A stretch of DNA of 57,661 bases from a virus (IMGVR_UViG_3300029268_000020:1-57661); one strand, 5' to 3'; numbered from the stretch's first letter, positions 5 through 57,661 are shown. Notes: generated by a model not told the origin, from the sequence alone. Made by a program: numbers and translations.

Positions 5-130
5 GGCCGCGGCGATCTGCTGGGTGTGGGGCTGGCCGTGGGCGGCGTTCCTCAAGCGGGGCGAGGCGGCGATCCCGGAGCCGAAGGCGTGGGCGGCCCA
101 GGAAAAGGACAAAGGACAAAGGACAAAGGA
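5..130. repeat. Terminal direct repeat (circular assembly overlap), left copy
   Basis: Identical to 57536-57661 (126 bp); bases 1-4 match 57531-57534 with a 1-bp gap. Confidence 0.95.
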
Positions 131-254
131 CAAAGTGGGGAAGGGAGCGAAGGACGGCAGGGGGAAAGCGGGGTGGCGGGACGGGAAGGCGGCGGCGGCC
201 GGGGAGCGGGAGGAGGACGAGGAGGAAGGAGAGGAAGAGGAAGGAGAGGAGTAG
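5..254 (+). CDS. C-terminal end of the ParB-family protein that starts at 54996 and crosses the circular join
   Basis: Same peptide as the end of the window (AAICWVWGWPWAAFLKRGE...), acidic tail, TAG at 252-254. Confidence 0.8.
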
Positions 255-329
255 GAGAGGGAATTTCAGATTTCAGATTTCAAATTTCAGATTCTAACCA
301 CGGATGACACGGAAGGCACGGATAGGACG

Positions 330-680
330 ATGGTCAAAATTACGCGGCAGTGGGCGACGATGCGGACGTTGGCGGAGGAGCGGCACTTTGAATGCCTGGG
401 AGGCAAGGTGCTGATTTATGCCCAGAGGTATAAGGAAGGCGGGGGACAGGTGATGCTGGAGGCGGGACGCAAGAGCCTGAGCGCGGGCGCGGCGATCGTT
501 CTGGCGGCGACGCTCGATGCGGCGGCCCGATTCGTGGGGGGCGAGGAGGTGACGCCGGAGATGCTGAGCGTCGTGGAGCAAGTGGACGGGGGAAAGACAA
601 AGGACAAAGGACAAAGGACGAAGGACAAAGGACAAAGGACTGAGGACGAAGGACTGAAGGCGGAGGCGAACGTAAATTAA
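330..680 (+). CDS. Hypothetical protein with in-frame heptamer repeat (KDKGQRT)
   Basis: ATG after AGGA, coding-like composition. Confidence 0.65.
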   Translation: MVKITRQWATMRTLAEERHFECLGGKVLIYAQRYKEGGGQVMLEAGRKSLSAGAAIVLAATLDAAARFVGGEEVTPEMLSVVEQVDGGKTKDKGQRTKDKGQRTEDEGLKAEANVN

Positions 681-689
681 CCCGCGGGG

Positions 690-2275: not shown

Positions 2276-2387
2276 CCACGGATGGCACGGATGGGCACGG
2301 ATAAGGGATTTTAACCACGGATGGCACGGATGGGTGCGGATGGGGAAAATGTTACAAATTTTGGCGAAACGGGGTTTGGCGTAACAA

Positions 2388-2797: not shown

Positions 2798-3700
2798 ATG
2801 CGGACGATTTATGAACCTTCAGGCAAGGCGCGGGAGTACTCGCCGCTGGCGCTGAATATTTATTTGGGCTGCGACCACGGGTGCGTTTACTGCTACGCGC
2901 GGGACAATAAGCGGGGCGGGGCGGAGGGGCCGGTCAAGGCGCGGGCGGGGCTGGTGGCGGCGCTGGAGCTGGAACTGCAGAAGCGGGTGGTGACGCAGCA
3001 GGTGCTGCTGTGCTTCACGTGCGACCCGTACCCGATGGCGCCGGAGTATCACCTGACGCACGACGTGCTCAAGGTGCTGCTGGCGCACAAGGTGCCGACG
3101 GCGATCCTGACCAAGGGCGGGGCGCGGTGCCATGCGGACCTGGCCCTGTTCAAGCGCTATGGGGTGCAGGGCGTGCCGCTCAAGGTGGGGGCCAGCCTGA
3201 CGCTGTTTGACGCGGAGGCGTCGGCGCGGCTGGAGCCGGGGGCGGCGCTGCCTGACGAGCGCCTGGCGACGCTGGAGATGCTGCACGAGGCGGGGGTGAG
3301 GACCTGGGTGAGCTTCGAGCCGGTCGTCGACCCGGAGCAGACGCTGGACCTGATGGCCGCCGCGACGCCGTGGGTGGATGAATACAAGATCGGCAAGCTC
3401 AACCACGATCCGGCGGCCGAGGCGGCGATCGACTGGGGGGCGTTCGGGAGGCGGGCGGTGCTGCTGGCCAGGAAGCTGGGCAAGCGGTTTTATGTGAAGG
3501 AGGATTTGCGCAAGGCGATGGGAGGCAGAAAGGAGGTGGACGACGTGGAGTTGACCGCGGCGGAGACGGACCAGGACGCGCTGACCTTAAGAAGCGCGGA
3601 GTGCGGAGTACGGAGCGCGGAAATGGGGAATGCGGAGTGCGGAGTGCGAAATGCGGAAACGGAAAAGGAGGGGCCAGGGGGGCAGCTATCGTTATTTTAA
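2798..3700 (+). CDS. Radical SAM protein (spore photoproduct lyase-like)
   Basis: CxxxCxxC (CDHGCVYC), DPYP, ILTK, LEPGA..P..RL, SFEP motifs; ends in QLSLF. Confidence 0.88.
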   Translation: MRTIYEPSGKAREYSPLALNIYLGCDHGCVYCYARDNKRGGAEGPVKARAGLVAALELELQKRVVTQQVLLCFTCDPYPMAPEYHLTHDVLKVLLAHKVPTAILTKGGARCHADLALFKRYGVQGVPLKVGASLTLFDAEASARLEPGAALPDERLATLEMLHEAGVRTWVSFEPVVDPEQTLDLMAAATPWVDEYKIGKLNHDPAAEAAIDWGAFGRRAVLLARKLGKRFYVKEDLRKAMGGRKEVDDVELTAAETDQDALTLRSAECGVRSAEMGNAECGVRNAETEKEGPGGQLSLF

Positions 3701-3774
3701 CCGCGGATGACGCGGAGGGCGCGGATGGAAACCGTCTTTAAGGGACGGTAATCAACAAACAGCGGAGGAGAGAG

Positions 3775-4013
3775 ATGGATCGAACAAAGATCGTAGTGTT
3801 GGACCGGGGATTCGTCTACGTCGGCCAGGTGGACCTGGACGAAAAATTCTGCACGATCAGCGGGGCCAAATGCATCCGGCGCTGGGGAACCACCAAGGGC
3901 CTGGGGGAACTGGCCCTGGAAGGACCGAAGCTGATGACAAAAATGGACCCGACCGGGACCGTGAAGGCGCCGATGCGCGCGGTGATCACGCTGATCGACA
4001 CCGAGGCAGCCTT

Positions 4014-4029
<16 letters not shown>
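3775..4029 (+). CDS. Small phage protein of the type typically found before Gly-Asp/Gly-Tyr repeat genes (DUF6948-like)
   Basis: IVVLDRGFVYVG...IRRWGTTKGLGELALEGP; GGAGGAG SD. Confidence 0.75.
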
Positions 4030-4265
<236 letters not shown>

Positions 4266-4372: not shown

Positions 4373-5350
4373 GTGCCACGGCAACGCATGATCAAACCGG
4401 AATTTCTTTCGAGCGAGACGATGGGAAGACTTTCGTTCCCGGCACGGCTGGCCTACGTGGGCAGTTGGATGCTGGCGGACGACGAGGGCAAGTGCCGAGG
4501 GGCGCTTCCCTACCTGCAAGGGCAGATTTTTCCCTTTGAGGAAACACGGATCGATATGGCGAAGATCCGCGATCGGCTGGCTGAGGCGGAGCGCTGGTTT
4601 GTCTATCAAGTGGGTGGCATGTCATATATCTGGTTGCCCCGGTTCTGGGCGCACCAGACGATTAACCGGCCATATCGGAGCTCGATCCCCGATCCACCGC
4701 AAGAGGCAATCGTGGCGGCGTCGGAACGGGTGCAGGAGTGGCATGCGCGGTGGATAGCCTGGCGGAAGATGCAGGAGTGGGAAGTGCGCAAAGGCGAAGA
4801 AAGACGCGGAATACGCAATGCGGAATGCGTAGTGCGCAATGAGGCGGAAGGAGAGTCAGAAGAGTCGTGGAATGGTGAAAACAATGGGCTTGCCCATTCA
4901 GTGAATGATTCCGTGAGCCATTCACGCTCTAATACTAAATCTAAGACTAAATCTAAATCGGATAGCGCGCTGGCGCGCGGGAGGCCAAAACCAAAAAGAA
5001 ATACCGGAATGCGGAATGCGGAATGCGGGGCGGAGGCGCCGGTGCAGGGGGACCTGCTGGAGGCGGCGGGGGAACTGACGGCGGCGGGAGCGACGACGTG
5101 GGACCTGGCGCTGGCGAAACTGCGGGGGACGATGGACCGGGAGTCCTTCGCGACCTGGCTGATGCCGCTGCGGTGCCTGAGGCTGGACGGCGCGCGGGGG
5201 GAAGTGGTGCTGGGTGTGCCGAGCGAGTTTTGCCGTCACTGGATCGAGCGCGATTATGGCACGGCGATCCGGGAGACGCTGAGTGAGATCACGGCGGCAG
5301 GAGCGGAGGGGCGGGCGTGGGAGGTGGAATACCGGATCGTGGGGGACTGA
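4373..5350 (+). CDS. Phage replication initiator with C-terminal DnaA N-terminal-like domain
   Basis: N-terminal RQRMIKPEF...ADDEG initiator motif; C-terminal WDLALAKL...SFATWL.PL...LGVPSEF..HWIE..Y. Confidence 0.82.
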   Translation: MPRQRMIKPEFLSSETMGRLSFPARLAYVGSWMLADDEGKCRGALPYLQGQIFPFEETRIDMAKIRDRLAEAERWFVYQVGGMSYIWLPRFWAHQTINRPYRSSIPDPPQEAIVAASERVQEWHARWIAWRKMQEWEVRKGEERRGIRNAECVVRNEAEGESEESWNGENNGLAHSVNDSVSHSRSNTKSKTKSKSDSALARGRPKPKRNTGMRNAECGAEAPVQGDLLEAAGELTAAGATTWDLALAKLRGTMDRESFATWLMPLRCLRLDGARGEVVLGVPSEFCRHWIERDYGTAIRETLSEITAAGAEGRAWEVEYRIVGD

Positions 5351-5429
5351 GGAGATTTAACCACGGATGGCACGGAAGGCGCGGATACAATTGGGAGTGA
5401 AACCACGAAAGACACGGAGCACACTGAAA

Positions 5430-5648
5430 ATGGGACAGGATAGCGAATACCGGGTGGTGCGGACGAAGTGGGGAGTGGCGGTGTATGGAATCGTGCCGGC
5501 GGGGGAGGTTTGCGTGTTGCTGAAGCACTGGGAGGAGGCGAGGGGCTGGGATATGGTGGACTCGCGGATCGGGGAGAAGCTTGGGGCGACGATCGTGGTG
5601 GGGGAGCGGAAGGAGTTGGAGTGTTGGCGCGAGGATTTGGGAATTTAA
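5430..5648 (+). CDS. Hypothetical protein
   Basis: ORF between two nonamer repeats. Confidence 0.6.
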   Translation: MGQDSEYRVVRTKWGVAVYGIVPAGEVCVLLKHWEEARGWDMVDSRIGEKLGATIVVGERKELECWREDLGI

Positions 5649-6307: not shown

Positions 6308-6492
6308 GCGCTTCTCTTTTCGGGCGGATCCCCCCTTAATTAAATTTGAGTTGCTGGTTTGAAAATCGAGCGCCCGGCCGATGGTTGGAAGATACCGGGC
6401 CGGGCGCTTCTGTAGTGCTGAATGATGAGTGCTGAATGATGGGGAAAAGGACAAAGGACAAAGGACAAAGGACAAAGGAGCGGGCGGACAAG

Positions 6493-7110
6493 ATGTCCGC
6501 GCTCCCAAAGAAGCGGCGGCGGGGGCCGACGCCGCCGGTTGTGATTGAAGCGCCGGAGGCTGTAGAGCTGGGGGCGCGACAGCTTTTGTTCGTCAAGGAA
6601 TACCTGGTCGACCTGAACGCGACGCAGGCGGCGATCCGGGCGGGCTACAGCAAACGGACGGCCGGCGTGCAGGGTCCGCGGCTGTTAGGAAATGTTAGCG
6701 TCAGGAAGATGATCCAGGAGGGGCTGGAGCGGCAGGCCTTACAGGCGGACAAGGACGCCCAGGCGGTGATCAAGGAGCTGGAGCGGCTGGCGTTCGCGAA
6801 CATGCTGGACTTCATTCAGGTGGGGGCGGACGGCAGTGCCAACCTGGACCTGTCGCGGCTGACGCGGGAGCAGGCGGCGGCGATCCAGGAGATCACGACG
6901 GACGAATACATGGACGGCACGGGCGAGGACGCGCGGCCGGTGCGGCGGACGAAAGTCAAGCTGGTTTCCAAGTCCCGGATGCTGGAGCTGCTGGGCAAAC
7001 ATCACGGACTGTTCGTGCAGAAGGTGGAGATGGTGGGGGCCAAGGCGGGGCCGCTGGCGGGCATGAGCGAGGAGCAGTTGCGCAGGATCGTGGAGGGCTG
7101 CGGGGAGTAG
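6493..7110 (+). CDS. terS: Terminase small subunit
   Basis: FVKEYLVDLNATQAAIRAGYS..TA...G.RLL; ELLGKHHGLF; start uncertain (6436 or 6493). Confidence 0.92.
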   Translation: MSALPKKRRRGPTPPVVIEAPEAVELGARQLLFVKEYLVDLNATQAAIRAGYSKRTAGVQGPRLLGNVSVRKMIQEGLERQALQADKDAQAVIKELERLAFANMLDFIQVGADGSANLDLSRLTREQAAAIQEITTDEYMDGTGEDARPVRRTKVKLVSKSRMLELLGKHHGLFVQKVEMVGAKAGPLAGMSEEQLRRIVEGCGE

Positions 7111-7219
7111 GAAAAGTGGAGAATGCGGAATGCGGAATACGCAAAGCGGAATGCGAAAGATCGGACGGGCGGCGCGGGCGTTGGGCCTGGCGCTGCTGTT
7201 TTTTTGCGGGTCTGCTGTG

Positions 7220-9432: not shown

Positions 9433-9585
9433 GAGGAGAAGAAGGACAAAGGACAAAGGACGAAGGACAAAGGGAATTTCAGATTTCAGATTTCAAATTT
9501 CAGATTGACGGAGAAGAGGACAGAGGCGAAGGGAATTTCAGATTTCAGATTTTTGGGGGAAACGGGACGAAGGACGCAAAGCAGA

Positions 9586-18985: not shown

Positions 18986-19054
18986 GGAATTGTAGATTGT
19001 AGATTGTAGATTGCGGATTAAGAAATTTGACCACGGATAGCACGGAAGGCACGG

Positions 19055-19708
19055 ATGATTATGGGCGGGACATTCACGGGCACAGCGGTGGGGACTCCGG
19101 CCGGCGTCGAGCTGAGCGGGCTGCTGGACGAGGCGGCGGTGCAGTTGCCGGAGTGCCCGGACGGGCATATCACGGCCAAGCTGCGGGCGGGGTGCCGGAT
19201 GTTTTTCGAGGACTCCTGGGCGTGGAACGAAAAGCTGGCGGCGATCGCGCTGGTGGCGGGCCAGACCCAATATACGATCCCCAACCCCTACAACTACACC
19301 GTGGACACGCTGGCGGTCGAGAGCGTCAAGCGCGTCAGCGCCGCGGGGATCGTGTTGAGCACGATCGACGCGAGCCTGTACACGGTGGGGGACGACAACA
19401 CGCTGGAGTTTATCGCGGCGCCGCTGGCGACGGGGGCGACGACAACGGACACGCTGACGATCCAGGCGATCCGCTGGCCGCGCGAGACATGCACGTCGAT
19501 ACCGGAAAAGCTGTTCAACCGCTGGCGGGGGGCGATCGCGGCCTGGGCGATCTGGCAAATCAAGCTGGAGAAAGGCCAGCCCTGGAGCGATCGGGAAGGG
19601 GCCGGGGCGTGGTTGGAGACTTATCAGCGCGGCGTCGAGCAGGCGATTGGGGACGCGATCAAGGGGCGCAAGGCGGCGTGCCGGATGCCGGAGCCGCCGT
19701 GCATGTGA
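19055..19708 (+). CDS. Head-tail adaptor (tail tubular protein A-like)
   Basis: LPECPD...LR.....F..S.AW, L.AGQTQY.I, AIAAWA......GQPWSD. Confidence 0.72.
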   Translation: MIMGGTFTGTAVGTPAGVELSGLLDEAAVQLPECPDGHITAKLRAGCRMFFEDSWAWNEKLAAIALVAGQTQYTIPNPYNYTVDTLAVESVKRVSAAGIVLSTIDASLYTVGDDNTLEFIAAPLATGATTTDTLTIQAIRWPRETCTSIPEKLFNRWRGAIAAWAIWQIKLEKGQPWSDREGAGAWLETYQRGVEQAIGDAIKGRKAACRMPEPPCM

Positions 19709-20554: not shown

Positions 20555-20659
20555 CAAAGGACAAAGGACGAAGGACGAAGGACAAAGGACGAAGAAGAAT
20601 TTCAAATTTCAAATTTCAGATTTCAGATTTGAGGACTAGGGACGAAGGACAAAGGACAA

Positions 20660-24333: not shown

Positions 24334-24400
24334 GGGGGAGAGGGAGAGGGGATTTTAACCACGGATGGCGCGGAAGGCGCGGATGGAAAGGGTCAAAGGA

Positions 24401-25033: not shown

Positions 25034-25220
25034 GGAGAATTTGACCACGGATGGCGCGGAAGGACGCGGATAAGGAAAGGAATTTCAGATTTCAGATTTC
25101 AAATTTCAGATGGGCGGACAAGATGTCCGCGCTCTCAGAAGGGGAATTTGACCACGGATGGCGCGGGAGGGCGCGGATAGGTCCGGACCGGGCCACGAAA
25201 AACACGAAAGACACGAAAAA

Positions 25221-31552: not shown

Positions 31553-34500
31553 ATGGCAATGGCACCGACCGACGAACTGGCGCGGGTGGACAACTGGCTG
31601 GCGCGCAAACGCGCGGCGCGGCCGGAGACTCCAGGCCCGGTGACCGCGACGGCGGGCGGCGCGGGAAATGAGGGAAATGATGAGTTGGCGCGGGTGGACG
31701 ACTGGCTGGCGCGCAAACGCGCGGGTCGGGCGGCGCCGGCCCAAACTGCGAACACCGGACCGTCTGAAGCCGGGATAACGAACTTAAGACCGGCTGAAGC
31801 CGGGACAACGAACCCGGAGCGGACGGGGGCGTCCGCGCTCCCAGGGTTGCCGGCGGGGTGGAGTTTGAGCCGGGCGCGGGGCGTTCCTGCCGCTCCGGCG
31901 CCGGCGCCGCGGCCGCAGGCGGATTTTCCGCAGGGAGGCGAGGCCTCGCAGACGCTGGAGGCGGCGCGGATGCGGGCGCAGGGGAGTTATCCGCGGCAGG
32001 GATTCAACCAGCCGGATCATAACCGGCTGCCGGCGGGGGAAGCGGCGGCGGGGATCGGGAGCAAGACGATCGCCGGGGCGGCCAGGGTGCTGGCCTGGCC
32101 GGAGAAGGCGGGTGGGGCGCTGACGCGAGTGCTGCGGAATACGCCGGTGGCGCGTGACGTGATGATGGGGTTTCCGACGTTGCGGGATGCGGCGCTGCGG
32201 CAGGCGGCGGGCGACGCGCGACAAAGCGGGGCGGCCGGCGCGGAGAACCTGCCCGAATCAAGGGGGCCGGTGACGCGGTTCGTGGACCGGACGCAGGCGA
32301 TGGCGGACGCGCAGACGCGGGGGATGAGCACGGGCCAGGAGATCGGGGCCGGAGTGGGACAAGCGGTGGGCGAGATCCTGCCGGTGCTGCCGGTGTATGG
32401 CGCGGCGGGCAAGGTGGTGGAAGCGATTCCGGGGATGGCGAGGATGGCCGCGGCGGCCGCGGCGGTGCGCAACCCGGTGGCGCGGGTGGCGGCCAAGGGA
32501 GCATTGTCGGCGGCCAAGGGGGCGCTGTCGTTCGGGGCGGCGGAAGTGGCGCTAAACCCGGACCGGCCGGCCGAAGCGGGGCTGGCGGGGATGAAAACGG
32601 GGGCGGTGCTGGGGCCGTGGGGCGAAGTGGCGGGAAAACTGGTCAAGCCGCTGGCGGCGCGGCCGGCGTTGCAGAAGATTGCGCGGGTGGGAGCCGGGGC
32701 GGCGTTCGGGGCGGGGATGGCGGCGGCGGAGAAGCCGGCGGACGTGAGCTGGCGGCAGTGGGCGCCGGAGATCGGCAAGAGCGCGGGGACGTTCGCGGCG
32801 CTGGACCTGCTGCATCCGACGGACGCGGCGACCAAGCGCAAATGGACCGAAGCGCGCGGGGCGGAGCTGGAGCGGGCGGGGATCAGGACGACGCCGGAGG
32901 AACTGGACGCGGTGCACCAGGCCACGGTGGACGCGGCGGAGCCCAAATGGGAAGAGGAAAAGTTTGACTCGCCGTGGGCCGCGAATGAATGGCGCAACAG
33001 CGAAAGGCATGCGGCGGAGGGGATCGACCCGGCCAGCGTGCGGATGAACGTGGGCAAGGGCGGCCAGACGACGCTGCGCTACACGCGCCTGGGGAACCAA
33101 CCCGAAGACGTGTGGAACCGGTTCGTGGAGCAGAAGATCCAGGGGCAGGTCAACCGAGAGCAGAACCAGCGCTTTAACGCCGCGGAGGATAAACTGGAGT
33201 GGGATCCCGCGGGCGCGCGGTGGGTGCGGCGGGTGAAGGACAAAGGACAAAGGACGGGAGAAGGACAAAGCGCGCCGGCCGGCGCGGCAAAGGACGAAGG
33301 ACAAGTTGAAGACCAGGCGTATCAAGGCCATCGCATGTGGGCGGACTGGACGCTGGAGCCGGGCAGAGAAGGGCAACTGCGGCAAGACTGGGGCCGCGGG
33401 GTCAGTCCGGGCGAGCCGGGCGAGCCGGTGCGGCGGGTGCTGGTGCAGGACGGCAGCGTGGTGCGCGAGGCGACGGCGGAGGAGGCGGAGAATTTCGAGC
33501 GGGAGCTGAGGGGGGAAGGAGAAGGACAAAGGACGGGGGAAGGACAAAGGACAAAGGACGAAGGACAAATGGGGGGACCGGCTGAAGCCGGGACAACGAA
33601 CGTTGGAAATCTTCCACGAGGAGGTGATGCCAATGAAGGGCAAGGGCAAGAAGGGGGGCTGCTGAAAGGGCAGCCCGTGCAAACCGCGCCGGTAGTGGCG
33701 CCCGAGCGAAGCAAGGAACAACCTGCCCCGTTGCTCGCACCGACGGGGCAGGTCTCGGCGGAGGCGTCCGCGGTACCGGTACCGGGGAAAGAGGAGCGGA
33801 CGGGGGCGTCCGCGCTCCCAGGAGTGGCGGAGACGCGGGCGGCGGGACGGAGCGAACGTGAAGCCCTGGCGGCGGAAGCGCGGGCCAGGATGGAAGCGGC
33901 GGCGGCGAAGCAGGCGGGGACGGGGGCGTCCGCGCTCCCAGGAGGGGCGGCCGCGCTCCCAGGAAAGGGCTTGACAGGGGCGGGGGCGGGGGCTAGAACG
34001 GCAGAGGAGCGGACGGGGGCGTCCGCGCTCCCAGGAAAAGAAACGCTCCCAGGAAAAGAAACGCCCCCAGGGGAGGAAACCCATGGTGGACCTTTATCTG
34101 CAGAACGGAATCCGCCTGAGTCTGAAACGCGAGAAGGACGAGAACGGGCGCTTGCTCGTCTTACAGAATCCGTTCGTGCTCGGGCTGCTGGAGGAGGGGG
34201 CGGACTTCATCCCGATCGGGACCGGATCGTATACGACAATACCGGCGCCCGAGCACTTGCGGGGGGCTGGAAAGTTGCCAACCGACTAGCCGAAATCTTC
34301 GGGTTCCGGCTGCATCCGGTGCGCGCCGAGGGCAAACTGGACAACTTCAACGGCGCCGTCGACCCGGAAAATCACAAAACATTATTTTACAACACCAACA
34401 CGGAGGCGCACAAGACACCGGTGGCCTTCGTCATCGGGCACGAGCTGGGCCACGCCATCGAGCTGGAGCTGGGCGCGGGCAGTCCGGTCGTGCGCGCCTA

Positions 34501-37500
34501 CCGCGAGGCGCACGAGGCGGCGTTCGTCAACGCCGAGAATTACGTGCGCAGCTACGCGAAGAGCGTGGGCTTGAATTACGACGCGATGCCGCGGGGCGAG
34601 AAGGAAGCTTATAAAAAGAAAGCCATCGAAGAGCACCGGCAGGACCTGACGGGAGAGAACCTGGTCAAGCCGGAGTTCTGGGAGCGCCTGGCCAAGGTTG
34701 ACCCGGGCGTGTTCCGGCGCACGGCGCGGGCGTTCATCCGGCTGCTGGACAAGATCAAGGAGATGCTGGGGATCGGGATGGATTACCAGGCCGAGCGCTG
34801 GCTGCAGCCGGCCAAGCTGGAGGCGCTGCGGGACAAGCTGGCGGGGATGCTGGGCGAGTATCAGCGGGCCAGCGGGCGGCTGGAGGATTTCAAGCAGCGG
34901 CGGCAGGGACGCCAGATGCACACGGTGCTCTCCTTCGCGGACATGAACAAGAGCACGGTGGCGACGCGGATCATGGACGCCGGCGGGCTGAGCGAAAACG
35001 CCGCGTTCGAGCTGAAGCACCTGGGGGCGTTCGAGGGCATGCAGCCGTGGCAGGTCAAGCGCCTGGCGCCGGAGGGAGGCGGGCCGGTGGACCTGGACGC
35101 GGTGGGCGAGCTGCTGCCGGCGTATCAGGAGCTCGGAGGGATATTCCGGGAGGTGGACAGTTACGGGCGGCCGGGCAAGCAGGACGTGCTGGACTGGCTG
35201 GCGGACAACATGCAGACGCGTTACTCGACGGGCAAACATTACCGGGCGGCGGAGAAGGCGGAGCTGAGCCGCGAGGAGGAGCAATACAACGCCGAACACG
35301 AGCGGGAATGGGCGGGGCTGAGTCAGGAGGAAAGGGAGGCGGCGGAGAAAAGCGCGGAGGGCGGAGTGCGGAGCGCGGAGGGAGAGGAAACGAAGGAAGA
35401 GTCGGATTTGCCGTTCATGGAGCGGAGAGGGAAGGGAGAAGAAGAAGAGCGGACGGGGGCGTCCGCGCTCCCAGGAGAGGACCTGGGGACGATCATGAAA
35501 GGGCGGCAGGGGGAATTAGAAGGACAAAGGACAAAGGACGAAGAACAAAGGGTGCGGGGGCAGGGGGAGCTGTTTCCGGGGGGAATGTTCGAGCAGGCGG
35601 CGGGGAGCACGCCGAGCGCGGAGGCGAAGGTCGGGAAGAAGACGGGGGACCGCAAAGGGCAGATTGCGTTTCAGGAGCGGCGGGGAGAAGCGGCGGCCAA
35701 GGCATTTACGCCGGATTACGATCCCGATAAAACAGGCGAGGTCATCCGGGCGTTGATTGAAAACAGGCCGGTGGCAACGGCGGATGCCTATAAAAACCCA
35801 CTGACGCGGCGGATGTTCGACAAGAAATATCGCGAGGCGCGCGTGCCGGCCTCCCGCGAGGCATTTGAGACTCTGGACAAAATTCCTGGCCGACTGTTTG
35901 CCGACTACATCCAACTCCAGGCCAAACACCCCGAAGAGTTTGCCACGGCACAAGAGGCACAGCGCCATGTGGAATGGGTCATGGAAGCACCCACCGATCA
36001 CCAGCCGGCCAGCAAGGACGGGGCGGTCATCTTCATGCGGCGCAACGGCGGAGACAAGGTGTCGATCGTCGAGTTTGAGAATCAAAAAGGCAAAGCGGTA
36101 AAAGACCGCGTCATCAGCGCCTATACGATGGATGCGGGACAATGGGAGTTTAAATTGCGGGGAGAGGAGAACGATCGGGGCGGGGTTTCCGAGCCCGGTC
36201 CTGCGAGTAAACCCGGCCAAGGCCAGGAACTCTCTCAGGGTGGTGGCGCGCCTTTCGACGCGCTTCGTCCCGATCCCAAAGCCAGTATTCCACCGGGAAG
36301 CCCGGAGGTCAAGAGTGAAGAGAGTTTGGGGACGTTTGAGGCGGGCAATCCGGACATCCGGATGCAGGAGCGGCGGAGTTATGGGGAGCTGGAGCGGGAG
36401 CGGCGGCAAATGAAGGAGACGGTCACGGCGGCGATCAAGGCGCCGGAGATCAAGGAGGTTGCCGAACAACTGAGCTGGGCGGACCAATATAAGGGCAAGG
36501 TGCGGGAGCGGAAGGCCAAGCTGGAGCAGACGCGGCGGGCGGTGGAGCGGCAGTCGCAGGCGCCGTACGGGCAGGACACGTCCGGCTGGAAGGTGCGACC
36601 GAAGAAGCAGGCGGACGGGGGAGTCAAGTGGGAGGTGCAGGACAAGGGCGGACAACTGATGGCCGGCCCTTTCACGACCGAGCGCGAGGCCGAGGCGGCG
36701 CGGGACAAGGCGCGCGGGGTGGTCACGGTGGCGCAAGGGGCGGCCGAGCTGAGGCGGCGGATCGAGAAGAGCTCGGTCAAGGCAGAGCAGGAGCGCGCGC
36801 TGGCGACGGCGAACATGACGATTGAGAAACTGATGGACGGGCCGCTGGAGGCGGCGAAGCGTCCGCAAACGATGAGCAAGGCGATGCAGGTGCTGATGAG
36901 GGTTTCGGGCGACGTGCGGGAAGAAGAGGTCCTGGCCGAAACGCGGCCGACCGAGGATGTGTTTCGCGCCGGGCTCAAGCAACTGGAGGAGAGTTACGGG
37001 ACAGACACGCCGCGCCACAAAGAGGCGCTGCAAACCTACCGCAATCAGATCGAACAGGCCGATCAGTTGGCCGCCGCGATGCAGGCGGACGGCCAGGCGA
37101 CGGAGGCGGCCTACGAAACGGCGCTCAGGGGTTTGTTCCCGAACGCGCCCAAGCGGATCGCCGGGTTGAAGCGGGCCAACGGCGGCAGCGCCAAAGAGGC
37201 CGTGAACAAGGTGCGCGAGGTTTTCGACAAGGAAATGACCCGGATCACGGCCAAGGACACGACGCGGCTGATGGCGCGGGTCAACGCCAAGGATTTATAT
37301 AACGACGCCCAGACGCCGGGGCACAATTACCGGCAGCAGTGGGAAATGTTGACGGGCCAGGATGAAGCATTCCGCGAACTGCGGCGGAAATACAGCGAGG
37401 CGCTGGCGGCGCTGCGCAAAACAGAGGCGGAAATCAAGGCCGGCACGGGAGGCCGGACGGCTCCGACCGAGGAGCGGGCGCTGGTGGCGCATTTGCGGGG

Positions 37501-46199: not shown

Positions 46200-46355
46200 C
46201 AGGAAAAGGACAAAGGACAATTGAAGGACAAAGGACAAAGGACAAAGGACGAATTGAAGGACAAAGGGAGGAAGGGGCGGGGGCGAGGCGGCGGAAGTGG
46301 GGTTTGGCGTAGGGCATGGGGAATTTTAACCACGGATGGCGCGGACGGGCGCGGA

Positions 46356-48120: not shown

Positions 48121-48342
48121 ATGTTGGAAAATGTGAAGTCGGCGCTGGAATTAGGGTGGCGGTACAACGAAATCGCCCGGGTGTGCGGGGTGAGCCGAAC
48201 AACGCTGTGGCGCCTGGTGAAGGGAACTAGCAGCGGCCAGGGGTTGACGCTGGACGCGATACGTTGCGGGGTGGAAAAACTGGTGGCCCAGGGCGCACCG
48301 ACGCGGGGAAAGCGCCAGGAGGCGCGGACGGGGACGGATTGA
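48121..48342 (+). CDS. cro: Cro-like HTH protein
   Basis: GGAGGTGA SD; YNEIARVCGVSRTTLWRL; divergent from cI. Confidence 0.8.
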   Translation: MLENVKSALELGWRYNEIARVCGVSRTTLWRLVKGTSSGQGLTLDAIRCGVEKLVAQGAPTRGKRQEARTGTD

Positions 48343-50387: not shown

Positions 50388-50481
50388 GGGAGAGGGATGT
50401 TGACCACGGATAGCGCGGAGGGACGCGGATTGATACCGGGGGGAGAGGGATTTTTACCACGGATAGCGCGGAGGGACGCGG

Positions 50482-51009
50482 ATGAAGATGGAAGCGGAAC
50501 TGGAAGTTCTGAATCTGGAGGCGGCGCGCGAGGAGCTGGCGCGGCTGCAGGAGATCAACGAGGCGCGTGATGCGCGGATCGCGCGGCTGGAGCGGGAGGC
50601 GGGGGAGCTGTGGGAGGCGCTGGCGCCGTTCGCGAAGCTGGGCGCCGAGTTGCCGGAAATGTATCCGGGGTTTTATCTGCTGGAGCACAAATGTTCATGG
50701 CCGAGGGCGGATGAATTCCGGCGGGCCGCGGCCGCGCTGGGATTGATCGGCGAGGGATGCGGCCGAGGCGCCCGGGCCGAGACGAAGGAGCCGGCTGAAG
50801 CCGGGACAACGAACCCGCGGCCGGGGGAGATCGTGGCGGCGCTGTGGGAGGGGGCGGCGGCGCGGATGACGAGGCTGCGGGAGGCGTATGAGGAGTTGGG
50901 CGGGGCGGGCGCGCCGGCGCTGTTCATCGCGCTGCGGCCGCTGTGGCGGCGCTACGAGGCCGGAGAGCGCAGCGAGGAGCTGTGGACGGCGATCATGGAG
51001 CTGGCGTGA
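50482..51009 (+). CDS. Hypothetical protein
   Basis: Coiled-coil N-terminus; in-frame PAEAGTTN repeat. Confidence 0.65.
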   Translation: MKMEAELEVLNLEAAREELARLQEINEARDARIARLEREAGELWEALAPFAKLGAELPEMYPGFYLLEHKCSWPRADEFRRAAAALGLIGEGCGRGARAETKEPAEAGTTNPRPGEIVAALWEGAAARMTRLREAYEELGGAGAPALFIALRPLWRRYEAGERSEELWTAIMELA

Positions 51010-51253: not shown

Positions 51254-51325
51254 CAAGAAAGTAGCTGAGTAGCTGAGTAGCAAAGTAGCTGAGAAATTAA
51301 CCACGGAGGGCGCGGAGGGGCGCGG

Positions 51326-51601
51326 ATGAACAGGCTGCCGGAAAGCGGAGAGGAGATCCCGGATCGGGTCTGGCACGCGGCGTGCGACACGTGCCTGGAG
51401 GCCGTCGAGGACATGAAGGGCAGGATCGAGGCCGGGGCGCGCGGGGACAAGCTGCGCGCCGTGCTGCTGGGCAACCTGGCCGCGGCGGTAAGCATGGCGC
51501 TGCTGATTGGGGAAGAGCTGGCGCTGGCGAAAGTGCAGATCAAGGAACTTAAGAGCGAGCTGGAGCGGCGGGGCGGCGGCAAGCGCAACGGCGACGGCTG
51601 A
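51326..51601 (+). CDS. Hypothetical protein
   Basis: ATG supplied by a nonamer repeat; 91 aa. Confidence 0.65.
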   Translation: MNRLPESGEEIPDRVWHAACDTCLEAVEDMKGRIEAGARGDKLRAVLLGNLAAAVSMALLIGEELALAKVQIKELKSELERRGGGKRNGDG

Positions 51602-51684
51602 AATTTAACCGCGGATGGCGCGGAAGGCACGGATGAGGGAGAGGGATTTTTGACCACGGATGGGCACGGAGGGACGCGGATGAA

Positions 51685-52330
51685 ATTGGCCGGGAAGACG
51701 GCCTGAAGGAATCCCCACAACAAGCGGGGTGGATAAGCTGGATGCAAGCCAGAGGCGGAGGGGACGTGCCGGACAACCTGGTTGGAGCCGGCGGGTCAGC
51801 CAAGCGGACGTGAAGACCAGGACGCATCCACCCCCAATGAGGCAACCGGACGCGCCGGCCGAAGGCCTGAGCTGGTCTCAGGCCACCGAGGTAGATCGGC
51901 CGTTCCGGAGTGGACCGCGAAGCCGTTGGAAATTGGTGGAGCGGTCCATGGCGCGGGCGACACCGGCCCGGATCGGACTAACCATGGAAAGACCGATTGA
52001 AAGGGCGTGACAGCCGGCAGAGACCGGCAACAAGTTTGGGCCGCGACGTCAATGCACATCAAGCGAGAGCGCCTGGCAATGCCAGGCGTGCGGCGGCGCG
52101 GCCCAAAATGACCTGACGGGTAAACGGTGAAACCCGGACCATGAGGGGATAACGCCAGGGCTTAAATCTCTGGATAATGCCTCAAGGAACTGTGGCAATC
52201 CTGCACCGTGACAGGCCGGGAGAGACCGGCACCTTTCCATACGCCGCCGGGCGCGGGCCGGGCGACGCCACAAACAACCGACGAGGCGGAACGCAGCATG
52301 GATGTTACAGCCGGGACGAGTCGGGGAGAT
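51685..52330 (+). ncRNA. Candidate large structured non-coding RNA or RNA-element cluster
   Basis: Several 8-11-bp stems, recurring GTGACAG-GCCGG-SAGAGA-CCGGC motif, no convincing ORF; strand assumed from the operon. Confidence 0.55.
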
Positions 52331-52808
52331 TGCAAATCAGCAATTCAAAATTTAACCACGGATGACGCGGACAACACGGATGGAGGAGCGGACGGGGACG
52401 TCCGCGCTCCCATGAAATTCGTGGTTCGAGGCAGCGCCGCGCCCTGGACAGTTCGCCGGGCTTGGCGACGGGAAACCCCAATCCCGCCCGTCGCGAAGTC
52501 AGTCCGGCCGGACCTTTGATTCCCCGGAGGTCAACGGCCGGCGTCCGCGCCAAGGCGCGGCGGCGACCGGGAGCCGGGCGCGGCGCTGCCTGGAGCCACG
52601 GAACAATTGTAGATTGTGGATTGTAGATTGCGGATTGGGGGAGCGGACGGGGGCGTCCGCGCTCCCAGGAGAGTTTGTGCGGCGGGCCGGCCTTCCTTGA
52701 ACACGAACGCGGAGAACGACTGAGGCCCACCTTAAAACCGCTACGCGACCGAACGGTCCGCCGCACAAGAAGAAGGACAAAGGACAAAGGACAAAGGACG
52801 AAGGACGC

Positions 52809-54216: not shown

Positions 54217-54330
54217 CCACGGAAAGGCCCAACCACGAAAAACGCGAAGCACACGAAAGACGGGAAAGAAATTGACCGCGGATGACGCGGAAGGCGCGGA
54301 TGGGGAATTTGGGCGCGGGGAGGCGCGAAA

Positions 54331-54924
54331 ATGATTGAGGCCTCGATACGGGAGTTGTTGCTGAAGATCAAGGCGTTGGCGGAGCGCGGGGCCAGCGAGG
54401 GGGAACGCGCGGCGGCGCGGGGGATGCTGGAGCGCAAGCTGGCGGCGCTGAAGATCACGCTGGCGGACCTGGAGCATGAAGAGAAGGAGATCGTCTGGTT
54501 TATCTACGCCAACGAGCAGGAGCGCCGGGTGATCGCCCATATCATGATGCGGCTGTTCGACCTGGATTCATTCTACAAGTCGCCCCTGAGGAAGAAGCGG
54601 GCGGGCTACGAGCTAACCAAGGCGCAGACCATCGAGGCGGCGGAGTGGGTGCGGCATTACCTGAGCGCCTTCCGGGAGGATTGGCGCGTCGAGACCCTGG
54701 CGTACAAGAAGCGGCTGAGCCTGATGTCGGTGGCGTTCGTGAATAAACACAAATTATTTTCCACGAATGAAGCGGTTGGGGGCGGTCCCAAAAAGAAAAC
54801 CGACATCGAGGAGATCAGGAGCATCCTGGTCATGATGGAGGGCCTAAAGGAGGTCAATCCGCCGCGGGCGAAGATGAGAAGCGGAGAGCCGGCGCGGGCG
54901 ATCGGCTGGGAAAAGGGGAAGTAA
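54331..54924 (+). CDS. DUF2786-like phage protein
   Basis: LLKIKALAERGASEGERAAAR.ML. Confidence 0.7.
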   Translation: MIEASIRELLLKIKALAERGASEGERAAARGMLERKLAALKITLADLEHEEKEIVWFIYANEQERRVIAHIMMRLFDLDSFYKSPLRKKRAGYELTKAQTIEAAEWVRHYLSAFREDWRVETLAYKKRLSLMSVAFVNKHKLFSTNEAVGGGPKKKTDIEEIRSILVMMEGLKEVNPPRAKMRSGEPARAIGWEKGK

Positions 54925-54995
54925 AAATTAACCGCGGATGACGCGGAAGGCGCGGATGGGGATTTCAGATTTCAGATCGTAAATTGGGACTGTGA

Positions 54996-57661
54996 ATGGG
55001 GAAGCGGATGGGGTGGCCGGGGTTTGTGAAGATCCGGGTGCTGAATACGCCGGCGGAGACGGGGATGGGGCGGCTGCACGTCGTCACGATCTGGATCAGG
55101 CCGCTGGCGGGAACCGGAGATGAACGGCGGGAATTGGGGGCGTTGCACGAGCTGTTGCGGGAAGGGGGATTCGGTTATGAAATATGGGCGCTGGCGGGGG
55201 AATGGCACTGGACGGCGGACAACGGCGAGAAATCGCGGGCAGCCTATGACCGGGCGGCGGGAAGCCGCTGGGTAAGCCGGAGGTGGCAGGAAGCGTCGAC
55301 GAGCGATGGACCAAGGACAAAGGACGAAGGACAAAACGCGGACGGGGAAGAGACGGACGCCATGAAACCAGGGGAAAGAAAAGAGGGTGGGGAGATGACC
55401 ACGAAAGACACGAAGCACACGAAAAAAGGGACGGGGCCGGCGGCGGACGGTTCCGAGGCGGAAATCATACGTAAGGCCGACGCGGGGGATTGGAAATGGG
55501 AGGTTGGGCAACGGGTTCGCGTGAAGGATCGGGACGGCTATAATTTTGGCGGGAAGATCTGGGAGCGGGTGATTTTTCGGGGACGGCGGGTGTACCGGCT
55601 CGAAGGGCCGAGTTTCAGACTGCCGACGGACAAGGAGATTGAATGGGAGGAAGACGAGCTGGAGCCGATCCCGCAGCACCGAGCGGGGACGTGCCAGTAC
55701 TGCGGCTGTGAAGACGAGCACGGATGCGAGGAGGGGTGCTCGTGGGTCGATCGAAAGCGGACGGTGTGCACCTCGTGCGTGGCGGAGGCGGAGACGGAGG
55801 CGAAGGCGAAGGGTGAAGGACAAAGGACAAAGGACAAAGGACGAAGGACAAAGGAGGACAAAGGACAAACTCCCGGAGAAACCACGGATGACGCGGATGG
55901 CGCGGATGGGGAAGAAGGATTGGCCACGAAAAACACGAAGCACACGAAAGGAAGCGGACAAGATGTCCGCGCTCCCAGTAGGTTGACGGCGATCCTGGAC
56001 GGGTTGGCGGCGGAGACGGAGCGGGTTTACCTGGTGCCGCTGGACCAGATCGAGGCGCATCCGAAGAACCCGCGGCACATCAATATCGCCAAGCCGGACA
56101 AGGCGCTGCTGGAGCTGGCGGAGTCGATCAAGGCCCAGGGGGTGAAGGAGCCGGCGCTGGGGCGGCCTTTGCCGCTGCCGGAAGGACCGGGGACGAAGGA
56201 CAAAGGACAAAATAAGATCCAGTTGGTGTTCGGGCATCGGCGCTGGCATGGCTGCCGGTTGGCGGGGGCGGCGTCGCTCAAGATGTACGTGCGGGAGATG
56301 GACGACATCGAGGCGCTGGAGCTGATGAGCCTGGAGAATTTGCAGCGCGAGAATCTGACGCCGCTGGAGGAGGCGGCGGGGATCCGCAACCTGACGGAGC
56401 TGGGGCGGACGCACGGGGAGATCGCGGCGGAGCTGGGCAAGCCGCTCAGCTTCGTGGCGCGGCGGGCGGCGCTCCACCGGCTGGACGAGCGCTGGGTCAG
56501 GGCGCGCCAGGGTGAGGACAAGCGCCTGGACGTGAGCGGCTGGGGAGCGAGCCACCTGGAGCTGGTGGCGTCGTTGCCCGCGGAGATGCAGGCCAAGCTG
56601 TACGGAGACCTGAGCGGGAGCCACTGGTGGGGAGGGGGCGGTCCGGGCGGCTGGAGCCTGGGCGAGCTGAGCCGCTTCATCGGCCAGGCGCTGCACCTGG
56701 TCAAGCTGGCGCCGTGGGGCGTCAAGGCGGAGGAGCTGGCCGGCGAGTGCGCCTGCCAGGTGTGCTCGCGGCGCAGCGGCTGCCAGCCCGAGCTGTTCGA
56801 GTCGCTGGCGGGGGAGGCCGCGGAGGACGAGGAGCGAGGGAATTGCAACGGGGAGATCGTGGGCAAGGACGACACGTGCCTGGATCCCAAGTGCTGGGAG
56901 CGGAAAATGGCGGCCTGGCTGGAGCGCAAGGCCGGGGAGCTGAAGGAGGAGCACGGCGACCAGGTCAAGCTGGTGCGGGAGAGTTACAGTCCGCCGAGCC
57001 CGGCGCAGGCGAAGGCCAATCCGCTGCTGGCCAAGACGGTGTACAAGGGCGACCTCCGGGCGGCCAAGAAGGGCGAGGCGGGGGCGTTCCCGATCTTGCA
57101 GGTGGAAGGAGCGGCGGCGGGCCAGACGCAGTGGATGAAGGCGGAGAGTTATGCCGCGAACAAGCCGGGACTGGCGGCGCCCAAGACGCTGGCGCAGAAG
57201 CGGAAGGAGCTGGAGGGGCGGCGGCTGATCAGGAGCTGCGAGGAGGTGATCGGGGAGCTGGAGCGGCTGATGGCTGACAATGGCAAAGGGATCGACCTGG
57301 AGAAACTCCCCGGCGGCTGGTTTCAGCGGACGATCGCGGTGGTGGTGCTGCGAGGCTGCCGGGCCCAGGGCGAGCAAAAGATCTGCTGCGCCAAGAACTT
57401 CCCGAAGGACATCGAGGCGCTGGCGGCTGACGTGCCCCGGCTGGATATGGCGCTGGTGGCGCGGGCGATGGACACGATGCTCCGGGAGTTGAACGATGAT
57501 GTGAAATACAAACTTCACGAACAAGCGCAGAAGACGGCCGCGGCGATCTGCTGGGTGTGGGGCTGGCCGTGGGCGGCGTTCCTCAAGCGGGGCGAGGCGG
57601 CGATCCCGGAGCCGAAGGCGTGGGCGGCCCAGGAAAAGGACAAAGGACAAAGGACAAAGGA
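54996..57661 (+). CDS. ParB/RepB/Spo0J-family protein with N-terminal extensions; continues across the join to 254
   Basis: Manual translation: VPLDQIEAHPKNPR..LLELAESIKAQGV.EP..GHRRW..ENLQRENLTPLEEA; absent from the ORF track because its stop is beyond the window end; true start uncertain. Confidence 0.85.
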   Translation, partial: MGKRMGWPGFVKIRVLNTPAETGMGRLHVVTIWIRPLAGTGDERRELGALHELLREGGFGYEIWALAGEWHWTADNGEKSRAAYDRAAGSRWVSRRWQEASTSDGPRTKDEGQNADGEETDAMKPGERKEGGEMTTKDTKHTKKGTGPAADGSEAEIIRKADAGDWKWEVGQRVRVKDRDGYNFGGKIWERVIFRGRRVYRLEGPSFRLPTDKEIEWEEDELEPIPQHRAGTCQYCGCEDEHGCEEGCSWVDRKRTVCTSCVAEAETEAKAKGEGQRTKDKGRRTKEDKGQTPGETTDDADGADGEEGLATKNTKHTKGSGQDVRAPSRLTAILDGLAAETERVYLVPLDQIEAHPKNPRHINIAKPDKALLELAESIKAQGVKEPALGRPLPLPEGPGTKDKGQNKIQLVFGHRRWHGCRLAGAASLKMYVREMDDIEALELMSLENLQRENLTPLEEAAGIRNLTELGRTHGEIAAELGKPLSFVARRAALHRLDERWVRARQGEDKRLDVSGWGASHLELVASLPAEMQAKLYGDLSGSHWWGGGGPGGWSLGELSRFIGQALHLVKLAPWGVKAEELAGECACQVCSRRSGCQPELFESLAGEAAEDEERGNCNGEIVGKDDTCLDPKCWERKMAAWLERKAGELKEEHGDQVKLVRESYSPPSPAQAKANPLLAKTVYKGDLRAAKKGEAGAFPILQVEGAAAGQTQWMKAESYAANKPGLAAPKTLAQKRKELEGRRLIRSCEEVIGELERLMADNGKGIDLEKLPGGWFQRTIAVVVLRGCRAQGEQKICCAKNFPKDIEALAADVPRLDMALVARAMDTMLRELNDDVKYKLHEQAQKTAAAICWVWGWPWAAFLKRGEAAIPEPKAWAAQEKDKGQRTK
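57536..57661. repeat. Terminal direct repeat, right copy
   Basis: Identical to 5-130. Confidence 0.95.

Follow-up and report, generated by a model that had tools for sequence, protein, structure and literature searches.

Why should short repeats of eight unrelated words, spread along a single phage genome, all point in the same direction? We addressed this question in IMGVR_UViG_3300029268_000020, an IMG/VR virus record of 57,661 nt from lake water, whose entire length was analyzed and is referred to here as the window. The record belongs to a temperate phage, is given as linear by IMG/VR and as 86% complete by CheckV, and has 47 of its 51 genes on the + strand (by our own gene list); its G+C content is 65%, and its + strand is purine-rich (G 22,534, C 14,847, A 11,962, T 8,318). 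An earlier note, made from the sequence alone, had reported strand-polar families of short repeats at the gene junctions and had proposed that a host-encoded process deposits them, or that they act as polar sites for protein loading or for recombination and gene shuffling. The repeats proved to be genuine and to lie without exception in + orientation. The reading that we favor, tentatively and with a probability of roughly 0.42, is that the phage acquired the elements in situ, that those at gene junctions came to serve as linkers, and that a one-directional process acting on the DNA gave the elements their orientation; what causes the polarity itself is not proven.

Repeat elements in a single orientation

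The elements comprise five families of heptamers, i.e., H1 (AAGGACA)n, H2 (ATTTCAG)n, H3 (ATTGNRG)n, H4 (AATGCGG)n and H5 (AATGGAG)n, the families N9 (CRCGGA three times, with a 9-10-nt period) and N9b (CACGAA two or three times), and a hairpin, HP (GGAGCGGACGGGGGCGTCCGCGCTCCCAGG). Counting exact tandem arrays of at least two units on the + and − strands, respectively, we found 24 and 0 for AAGGACA, 11 and 0 for ATTTCAG, 2 and 0 for ATTGTAG, 3 and 0 for GCGGAAT, 1 and 0 for AATGGAG, and 2 and 0 for GCGGAGT. Motif counts gave the same picture: CRCGGA triplets with the 9-10-nt period were present 26 times on the + strand, CACGAA triplets five times and the hairpin GAGCGGACG..CGTCCGC nine times, and none of the three on the − strand. 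A looser census recovered 96 elements in the eight families, all on the + strand and none on the − strand, of which 51, in five families, were heptamers (39 exact runs with a period of 7 and a length of 17 nt or more were detected, and the Tandem Repeats Finder output for the window comprised 202 rows). When the sequence was shuffled with its dinucleotides preserved, the N9 pattern, with 15 matches in the window, was recovered at a mean of 0.00 over 100 shuffles, and two successive AAGGACR units, with 62 matches, likewise at 0.00. The existence and common orientation of the repeats, as the earlier note had described them, are thus borne out, as are the stacked clusters that it had listed at 9442-9552, 20556-20660, 25043-25220 and 55816-55978, each of which was recovered in the census. 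Strictly, this uniformity refers to the co-orientation of copies within each family, which under random orientation has a probability of 2^-88.

Together, the elements occupy 2,474 nt, 1,408 of which fall within the 6,944 intergenic nt. More than half (53/96) are mostly intergenic, compared with an intergenic share of 12% of the genome, and at least one element is present at 32 of the 50 gene junctions. The longest element-free stretch (40170-46205), which contains the gap noted previously at 40640-44600, spans two late genes (40639-44599), an attP-like tRNA fragment, the integrase and a small open reading frame (ORF). Ninety-three of the 96 elements are sense to their local genes. The only junction at which elements run against them is 46206-46355, where two H1 and one N9 element lie between two minus-strand genes, in agreement with the + copies that the earlier note had placed at 46205-46356. 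That note had also stated that no transposase, RAYT or reverse transcriptase is encoded here, and indeed six-frame searches of the record, which is 86% complete, gave no match to PF01797 (Y1 transposase/RAYT) at E≤1 and none to PF00078 (reverse transcriptase), PF05635 or PF13366.

The phage sequence is present in three lake-water metagenome DNA runs from three studies (X1-X3), two of which may be the record's own source; RNA runs containing the phage are not listed. Contigs from the three runs showed 0 differences to the record on both sides of arrays and, in part, across them. Together with the occurrence of the words in isolate genomes and with the in-frame copies that keep long ORFs open, this leaves a next to negligible likelihood that the arrays are assembly artefacts, an explanation in whose favor one can cite the public-run contigs that end inside longer arrays. 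As a separate observation, the (GAATGCG)n array at 11828-11879 reached a depth of 294-1555 in these runs, against about 20 elsewhere, and many differently flanked contigs ended there; this array is therefore abundant in other DNA of the lake samples. Apparent "joints" between arrays in the run contigs were set aside as repeat-mediated contigs of other DNA.

Examination of the individual copies revealed discrete units of 20-40 nt with fixed ends and a fixed internal order. The H2 copies at 263, 9476, 12169 and 25082 are identical (GGA-ATTTCAG-ATTTCAG-ATTTCAA-ATTTCAG-ATT), down to a shared internal ATTTCAA variant. H3 consists of two or three ATTGTAG units followed by ATTGCGG-ATT, an ending found in 4/5 copies, the fifth (at 22692) stopping at ATTGCGG. 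The nine HP copies are near-identical, while their flanks are unrelated. Shared variants, fixed ends and the near-identity of the HP copies show that copies derive from whole elements and not from independent slippage. HP itself is a dispersed, imperfect hairpin of 25-30 nt (fold −18 kcal/mol, z −2.1), and seven of its nine copies fall within ORFs and are translated. A second hairpin word, GGCGGACAAGATGTCCGC, occurs twice (25112-25135 and 55949-55970), both times in + orientation and beside another element. All families with unequal G and C contents are G-rich on the + strand. We rejected the notion that the junction RNAs are uniformly unstructured, as the sense-strand folds of five of them ranged from z +2.29 to −2.31.

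Silent-site skew, other phages and bacterial chromosomes

The window also carries a marked strand asymmetry at silent sites. At the four-fold sites of + genes outside 40639-44599, G outnumbers C by 5308 to 1841 (skew +0.48). The integrase and repressor, both on the − strand, show the reverse when their coding strands are read, with C129:G57 and C82:G25, which amounts to G:C ratios of 129:57 (p=1e-7) and 82:25 (p=3e-8) on the + strand. Since both genes are C-rich on their own coding strands, the skew is tied to the DNA strand, whichever way the gene runs. For comparison, 205 genes sampled from a Verrucomicrobiota genome of similar GC content had a mean C/(C+G) of 0.50 (sd 0.10), with values of at least 0.69 in 0/205 genes and of at most 0.30 in 1%; against this control, the phage values of 0.26, 0.69 and 0.77 are extreme in both directions. 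The late genes at 40639-44599 are nearly unskewed (G:C 366:320 on the + strand), such that the element-free block coincides with unskewed genes, and across the genome the density of elements follows the skew of the genes (Spearman 0.65, p=5e-5). An unskewed and element-free block fits a recent import of that block together with a gradual gain of elements elsewhere.

In the reading that we favor, the elements would have been gained in place over the history of the lineage, because they are absent from the compositionally foreign block at 40.2-46.2 kb and their density rises with the silent-site skew. The single orientation would then have been imposed on the DNA strand by a transaction that runs in one direction only, the most plausible being one-way replication with one strand permanently leading or exposed; only one orientation of each word would arise or survive, and inverted copies would never persist. 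How far the earlier note was right in stating that the polarity follows the DNA strand and not transcription can be answered in two parts: the polarity is independent of the direction of each local gene, as the antisense elements at 46206-46355 and the skew of the integrase and repressor indicate, and it is nevertheless largely confounded with transcription, because 47 of the 51 genes are on the + strand.

Scans with a single protein, the large terminase (TerL), of genome and viral collections retrieved no close relative of the phage. The closest TerL was 61% identical to that of the window, and profile scans yielded 80 + 80 loci of at most 54% identity, each with no more than two arrays; as to the host, TerL relatives in bacterial genomes pointed to Lentisphaerota, Victivallales and Kiritimatiellia (48-52%). 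A megablast of 20 kb of the window against deposited phages gave no match, and the full set of elements was present in no genome searched. Scanning IMG/VR for the words instead, we obtained 59 stretches with three H2 units and 19 with three H1 units. Three IMG/VR records found via H1 or N9 (G006, G007 and G008) were discarded as relatives, being unrelated and array-poor.

Two phage records retrieved by the H2 and H1 scans of IMG/VR, G413 (loci L699 and L700; 30.6 kb) and G414 (L701-L703; 43.2 kb, 98% complete), have nearly all of their genes on one strand, and a tblastn of the window proteins against both gave no match. In each, the excess of G over C at the four-fold sites of the gene strand is extreme, reaching 629:49 in one gene of G413 and mostly lying between +0.3 and +0.8 in G414, and within this pair an integrase (phrog_1, E=1e-20; 180:50) and a regulator (phrog_1368, E=3e-5; 69:17) on the opposite strand retain the skew. 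None of their multi-copy array families includes a copy in the minority orientation (0/10 in G413, 0/11 in G414), and ATTTCAG, ATTGCAG and AATGCGG agree in orientation on the G-rich strand in the window, G413 and G414. These similarities raise the idea, which we regard as rather doubtful, that in such temperate high-GC phages a strongly one-directional DNA process both depletes silent-site C on one strand regardless of gene direction (G:C 3:1 to 13:1) and creates or keeps arrays of heptamers and nonamers that all point one way. In a wider comparison of 76 viral loci, selected for carrying arrays, minority-orientation copies numbered 0/25 where the absolute GC skew was at least 0.1 versus 12/49 below that value; with two overlapping loci removed, the low-skew figure was 9/38 (p=0.0087 versus 0/25). 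Also of note is an 18-kb viral contig with little GC skew (IMGVR_UViG_3300035696_002251; L680/L681), in which 17 heptamer arrays are set in inverted pairs (e.g., ACTAGCC 2+2 and AAAATCC 3+2), a hairpin-type counterpart of the window.

The copies could also share an orientation simply by descent, with neither a polar process nor a function: unequal exchange or template switching between concatemers would copy elements without turning them, and a compact genome read in one direction would not tolerate inversions or inverted repeats. The identity of whole elements among copies speaks for this, as does the absence from the window of the inverted pairs, 25-45 nt apart, that are common in bacteria and in low-skew viral contigs such as L680; moreover, the count of 96 to 0 strictly demonstrates co-orientation within families and nothing more. 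We nonetheless judge this explanation improbable. An arbitrary orientation, once locked in, would not predict that ATTTCAG, ATTGCAG and AATGCGG are co-oriented on the gene-sense, G-rich strand of three phages with no detectable protein similarity. Every family of the window with unequal G and C is, besides, G-rich on the + strand.

The array words are not phage-specific. AAGGACA, ATTTCAG and the CACGGATGG triplet are present across many bacterial phyla; in a species-representative genome collection, four units of AAGGACR and four of ATTTCAG were each found in at least 121 stretches, the listed matches coming from Planctomycetota, Verrucomicrobiota, Acidobacteriota, Chloroflexota, Bacteroidota, Cyanobacteria and others, including isolate genomes. 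A strict N9 24-mer, of which the phage has 11 copies, occurred in 63 stretches of a collection holding one genome for each of 185,579 species, in 82 stretches of a metagenome set of 241 million records and in one other viral contig. Each of the 82 metagenome stretches contained a single strict match and none was phage-like. Deposition by a host-encoded process, as the earlier note had it, is not supported, and no genome or metagenome contig searched approaches the N9 density of the phage. Many bacterial N9 copies share the ..GACC/AACC leader of the phage elements, and the HP hairpin was found, with at most one mismatch, in 3/401 Verrucomicrobiota sampled. Two loci deserve mention in their own right: a Calditrichaeota metagenome-assembled genome (L153) holds, at 1501-1632, a 36-nt tandem repeat whose unit is a full phage-type element (TGACC-ACGGATGA-CACGGAAGG-CACGGAAAGG), and the Verrucomicrobiota genome G355 carries the HP word with one mismatch as four repeats with a 42-nt period (C1:667342-667492). 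Metagenome loci such as L508, with long (CGCGGAAGG)n arrays, were excluded as being of a different kind.

Where bacterial arrays lie between co-directional genes, sense and antisense orientations were recorded 24 and 12 times for H1, 19 and 21 times for H2, and 10 and 7 times for N9, counts that rest on crude, heuristic gene calls and leave many loci unclassified. In the cyanobacterium G013, 32 intergenic H1 arrays were sense to the downstream gene in 19 cases and antisense in 13; whichever way they point, their distance to a gene end is typically 4-18 nt, and about nine are sense and 7-17 nt upstream of a start codon. Inverted array pairs 25-45 nt apart are common in another genome (G005). 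In N9 metagenome flanks, GC skew in the sense of the array was positive in 37/51 cases. Altogether, neither transcription nor replichore fixes the orientation of arrays in bacteria, which makes the 96:0 ratio of the phage the unusual part.

Several of our observations count against a one-directional DNA process as the source of the polarity. First, in the phage itself, transcription and DNA strand coincide for 47 of the 51 genes, and the single discordant junction, with its three elements, could stem from a single insertion. In addition, two of the four minus-strand ORFs are unskewed (C48:G55 in a DUF6804 gene and, at small numbers, C14:G19 in the small ORF at 45928-46128; as G:C on the + strand, 55:48 and 14:19, respectively), and array-length variants were absent from the contigs of the three lake-water runs, a type of sequence from which rare variants are dropped. 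Second, among the skewed viral loci, the G-C sign of the array unit agreed with the skew of the locus in 35 cases and disagreed in 23, meaning that a G-rich orientation is no general rule. Third, the words show no replichore polarity in bacteria: array orientation was interleaved in G002, G003 and G013 rather than split by replichore; 27 N9/N9b elements of the Verrucomicrobiota genome G202, arranged in blocks that only partly track the sampled GC skew, were concordant with it in 16 cases, discordant in 9 and ambiguous in 2; and the GC skew of bacterial flanks in the sense of the array was weakly positive (H1 45/74, N9 32/53, H2 33/65). Likewise, GGGAATC repeats are reported to have no leading- or lagging-strand preference (PMC4692102).

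Elements at gene junctions and along the gene map

At gene junctions, neighboring genes make use of stop codons, Shine-Dalgarno-like cores and start ATGs that lie within elements. The leader of N9 (..ATTT(T)AACC or ..ATTTGACC) contains a TAA or TGA, and 7/26 N9 copies begin no more than 14 nt past an annotated stop codon. Five of the 26 provide the start ATG of the next gene, either in unit 1 (5367, 24365) or in unit 3 (19055, 50482, 51326). An element lies within −22..+2 of 17 of the 46 + gene starts, yet most copies are located away from starts. When paired with a generic 16S rRNA 3' tail, N9 reached −9 to −10 kcal/mol, H1 −5.9 and N9b −5.1, with no comparable pairing for H2 (−1.8), H3 (−2.6) or reverse complements (−0.5 and −1.4). 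We suggest that junction elements were co-opted as linkers, in which the TAACC/TGACC leader would supply a stop codon, the cores AAAGGA, GGAGG/GGAAGG and GAAAG would pair with the 16S rRNA tail, and the ATG of CACGGATG would act as a start codon.

The main rival to our reading builds on these very features and places the polarity at the level of the mRNA. Elements would work only in sense on polycistronic + transcripts, as stop/spacer/Shine-Dalgarno/start linkers, ribosome standby sites or RNase sites, antisense copies would be selected out, and the skew would be unrelated. This is consistent with the sense orientation of 93/96 elements, with the stops, Shine-Dalgarno-like cores and start ATGs that neighboring genes take from them, with the failure of reverse complements to pair with the 16S tail, and with the roughly nine sense H1 arrays found 7-17 nt before start codons in G013; precedents are the Cluster K SAS (PMC3203893) and the TAACTGA repeats (PMC4679880). 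However, 43 of the 96 copies are not mostly intergenic and at least 10 sit deep inside ORFs, where a role in initiation fails, and all of these are still in + orientation, even though H1 and N9 are free of stops in all six frames. Shine-Dalgarno character is lacking in H2 and H3, the elements at 46.2 kb are antisense to their operon, and sense and antisense arrays are similarly frequent in bacteria and in G013. As the words are untied to transcription in bacteria, a purely mRNA-level rule would have to be specific to phages. We therefore consider selection at the mRNA level unlikely, if still the strongest of the competing explanations. CsrA, Hfq and cold-shock proteins were set aside as readers of the elements, several of the words having no GGA and some of the phyla that carry the words not being known to have CsrA.

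Copies within ORFs are read in frame and keep long ORFs open, and elements are tolerated in frame in protein loops. This is seen in the ParB-like protein described below, where an H1 array (56196..56209) encodes eight residues (tkdkgqnk) that, compared with Spo0J (1vz0), are inserted into a loop of the ParB N-domain, and in the 2860-aa ORF at 31553-40135, where H1 arrays and two HP hairpins at 33236..34031 are read in frame as KDKGQRT... and EERTGASALPG, and a further HP and H1 lie at 35447..35544.

Individual elements, all on the + strand, begin at the following positions. The 28 copies of H1 are at 105 (an array extending to 135), 600, 2644, 5720, 6447, 9442, 9811, 12208, 14467, 20557, 20638, 30120, 33236, 33290, 33522, 33540, 35520, 40137, 46206, 46224, 52773, 53348, 53629, 53833, 55313, 55816, 56196 and 57636. 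H2 has 13 copies (263, 9476, 9535, 9838, 12169, 19754, 20599, 22743, 22814, 25082, 49508, 49556 and 54962), H3 five (8715, 18989, 22692, 29715 and 52606), H4 four (3622, 5008, 7122 and 11834) and H5 one (19712). The 26 N9 elements are found at 299, 1019, 1533, 1577, 2277, 3702, 5362, 5951, 6184, 16739, 19032, 23710, 24360, 25046, 46331, 50140, 50405, 50458, 51302, 51610, 51655, 52357, 53439, 54277, 54933 and 55883, the 10 of N9b at 5404, 5651, 25194, 29788, 48378, 51024, 53074, 54234, 55400 and 55925, and the nine of HP at 1685, 30168, 31817, 33794, 34007, 35447, 52386, 52641 and 53884.

Many of these are stacked, or shared with a gene boundary. In the early region, an H2 of the sequence GGA-ATTTCAG x2-ATTTCAA-ATTTCAG-ATT is followed by an N9 (CACGGATGA-CACGGAAGG-CACGGATAG) at 263..322, 8 nt upstream of a start at 330. 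The N9 elements at 2277..2301 and 3702..3725 carry, in their leaders (TTTAACC in the former), the TAA stops of two + genes, namely a deoxynucleoside-monophosphate phosphatase-like gene (1412-2275; phrog_318) and a radical-SAM gene (2798-3700), which may be members of a nucleotide or DNA modification pathway (here and below, gene identities come from PHROG and Pfam scans). A replication initiator with a DnaA_N domain (4373-5350, +) lies directly 3' of a hexamer array (CGACGG/CTACGG, 35 copies, 92% matched, 4043-4252), which could represent origin iterons or a low-complexity coding part of the ORF at 3870-4265. Thereafter, an N9 and an N9b (5362..5418) open a 93-aa gene (5367-5648) at the ATG of N9 unit 1.

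The structural genes comprise the small terminase (6436-7110), TerL (7130-8710), the portal (9794-11953), the major head protein (13513-14454), a tail-spike-like protein (20660-22282) and a 1516-aa internal-virion-like protein (25158-29708). Here, a stack of H1, H2 and H2 at 9442..9552 follows the gene at 8761-9432, and its sense RNA folds worse than shuffled sequences (z +2.29). H3, as (ATTGTAG)3-ATTGCGG-ATT, and N9 occupy 18989..19055, the ATG of unit 3 starting a 217-aa virion gene; a stack of H1, H2 and H1 (20557..20658) reaches up to the ATG at 20660; and an N9 at 24360..24383 starts a 222-aa glucosaminidase-like gene with its unit 1 ATG. In the stack at 25046..25217, N9 and H2 are joined by the second hairpin GGCGGACAAGATGTCCGC, by a bare TTTGACCACGG leader where the 1516-aa gene starts, and by N9b.

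The lysogeny module is on the − strand. A stretch that looks like a tRNA 3' half, with T-arm and acceptor end (44735-44800), adjoins the integrase (44809-45924; phrog_1, PF00589), and this fragment (about 44740-44790) is probably the attP core; ARAGORN detected no whole tRNA in the window, and Rfam, at gathering thresholds, gave no match there. The 66-aa small ORF (45928-46128, −) has no family match and was rejected as a helix-turn-helix protein, the likeness being one by eye only and Pfam giving no match at E≤0.1. Between this ORF and the 3' end of the DUF6804 membrane-protein gene (46356-47315, −) are the two H1 and one N9 elements of 46206..46355. The DUF6804 gene, located downstream of the repressor, is unskewed and of low GC content (0.50), and looks like a recently acquired moron. 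An S24/CI-type repressor (47325-48008, −) and a cro-like helix-turn-helix gene (48121-48342, +), the latter an early gene, follow. Farther along, two N9 elements lie at 50405..50482, the second starting a 175-aa gene with its unit 3 ATG (50482), as does that of the N9 at 51302..51326 for a 91-aa gene. The 1.2 kb at 51602-52808, between early genes, have no convincing ORF or Rfam match and are dotted with N9, HP, H3 and H1 (three N9, two HP, one H3 and one H1 at 51610..52807).

The last gene (54996-57659, +), also an early one, encodes an 888-aa ParB-like protein with ParB_N and ParB helix-turn-helix domains, and has a stack of H1, N9 and N9b within its ORF (55816..55948). Its presence, along with the strict DNA polarity of the elements and what we take to be a resemblance of ATTTCAG to ParB-box or parS half-site words, is what one could bring forward for the proposal that the repeats are polar sites in the manner of Chi, KOPS or parS, loading this ParB-like protein or promoting gene shuffling. 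Eight unrelated words would, however, need several readers; the words are common in many bacterial phyla where they have no polarity, and many of the phage copies lie inside ORFs. In addition, the match of the ParB-like domain is to chromosomal Spo0J/ParB, for which the known sites are palindromes of 16 bp. Nothing points to polar protein loading, no support was found for loading or for recombination sites and gene shuffling, with a TerL of 61% identity as the nearest comparison, and we regard this proposal as highly improbable.

Relation to known repeat systems

Bacterial heptamer arrays have been known for decades without a mechanism or function, and their mixed orientation in chromosomes hides any directional cause. 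The window and two phage records with no detectable protein similarity to it, in which all copies run one way and coincide with a silent-site bias that is blind to gene direction, offer a compact system of 30-58 kb for weighing a strand-specific DNA process against mRNA-level selection as the maker or keeper of arrays; a strong, transcription-independent strand asymmetry in temperate phages moreover needs an explanation of its own. Should a one-directional DNA process be responsible, bacterial heptamer arrays would be products of strand-specific DNA transactions, such as template switching, repeat instability linked to the direction of the fork or attack on single-stranded DNA that lies exposed, rather than selected regulatory sites, and phages would be a system in which the origin of arrays can be read. 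Should the mRNA-level explanation hold, the elements would be portable stop, ribosome-binding and start linkers, relevant to translation in hosts of the Planctomycetes-Verrucomicrobia-Chlamydiae (PVC) type.

The repeats belong, as phage copies, to a widespread bacterial class of short-unit tandem arrays, of which TAACTGA, GGGAATC and the heptamer repeats of cyanobacteria are members; the class is known, and what is new is its strict polarity in a phage. The Creative Commons PMC and bioRxiv literature yielded no description of strictly co-oriented heptamer arrays in a phage genome. Like the bacterial arrays, among which the short tandemly repeated repetitive (STRR) sequences of cyanobacteria form a further heptanucleotide family, those of the phage consist of 2-6 tandem 7-nt units, with several word families per genome, lie within a few nt of gene ends or at times in frame in genes, employ words that span distant phyla, and have no known mobilizing enzyme. 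Unlike them, they are carried by a phage genome, mix with 9-nt triplet elements and a hairpin family, and include neither both orientations nor inverted pairs (0/96 inverted). The TAACTGA repeats of Beggiatoaceae, Cyanobacteria and Bacteroidetes are reported to be mostly forward and directly upstream of start codons (MacGregor 2015, PMC4679880), and GGGAATC repeats, known along with GGGGAYT repeats from Xanthomonas and Nostoc, are in Xanthomonas about equally divided between the strands, form 70-75 convergent pairs and are absent from the plasmids of the strains studied (PMC4692102).

Cassettes akin to the intervening sequences of 23S rRNA, in which inverted arrays surround an S23p/IVP four-helix-bundle or GxxExxY gene, differ from the phage elements, which have no inverted arms and are accompanied by no match to PF05635 or PF13366 in the record. 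HP resembles repetitive extragenic palindromic (REP) sequences and REPINs in being a short, imperfect, dispersed hairpin with nine near-identical copies. It departs from REP/REPIN-RAYT systems in that the record gives no Y1 transposase match, its copies are of a single orientation, and seven of the nine are translated in ORFs. With Chi and the FtsK-orienting polar sequences (KOPS), the elements share strand polarity and shortness of the word, but each of those is one 8-mer whose orientation in bacteria goes with the replichore, and the phage words have no replichore polarity in bacterial chromosomes.

The start-associated and extended start-associated sequences (SAS/ESAS) of Cluster K mycobacteriophages, which are 13 bp long, of one orientation and 3-7 bp upstream of starts (PMC3203893), are likewise asymmetric phage repeats of near-single orientation; their position next to starts, with a Shine-Dalgarno core and sometimes an upstream stop, is matched by some of the phage elements. 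SAS is one 13-bp word that keeps to the half of the genome with non-structural genes and hardly occurs in the host (PMC3203893). Unlike SAS, the present phage has eight tandem-unit words, distributed genome-wide and also inside ORFs, that it holds in common with many bacteria.

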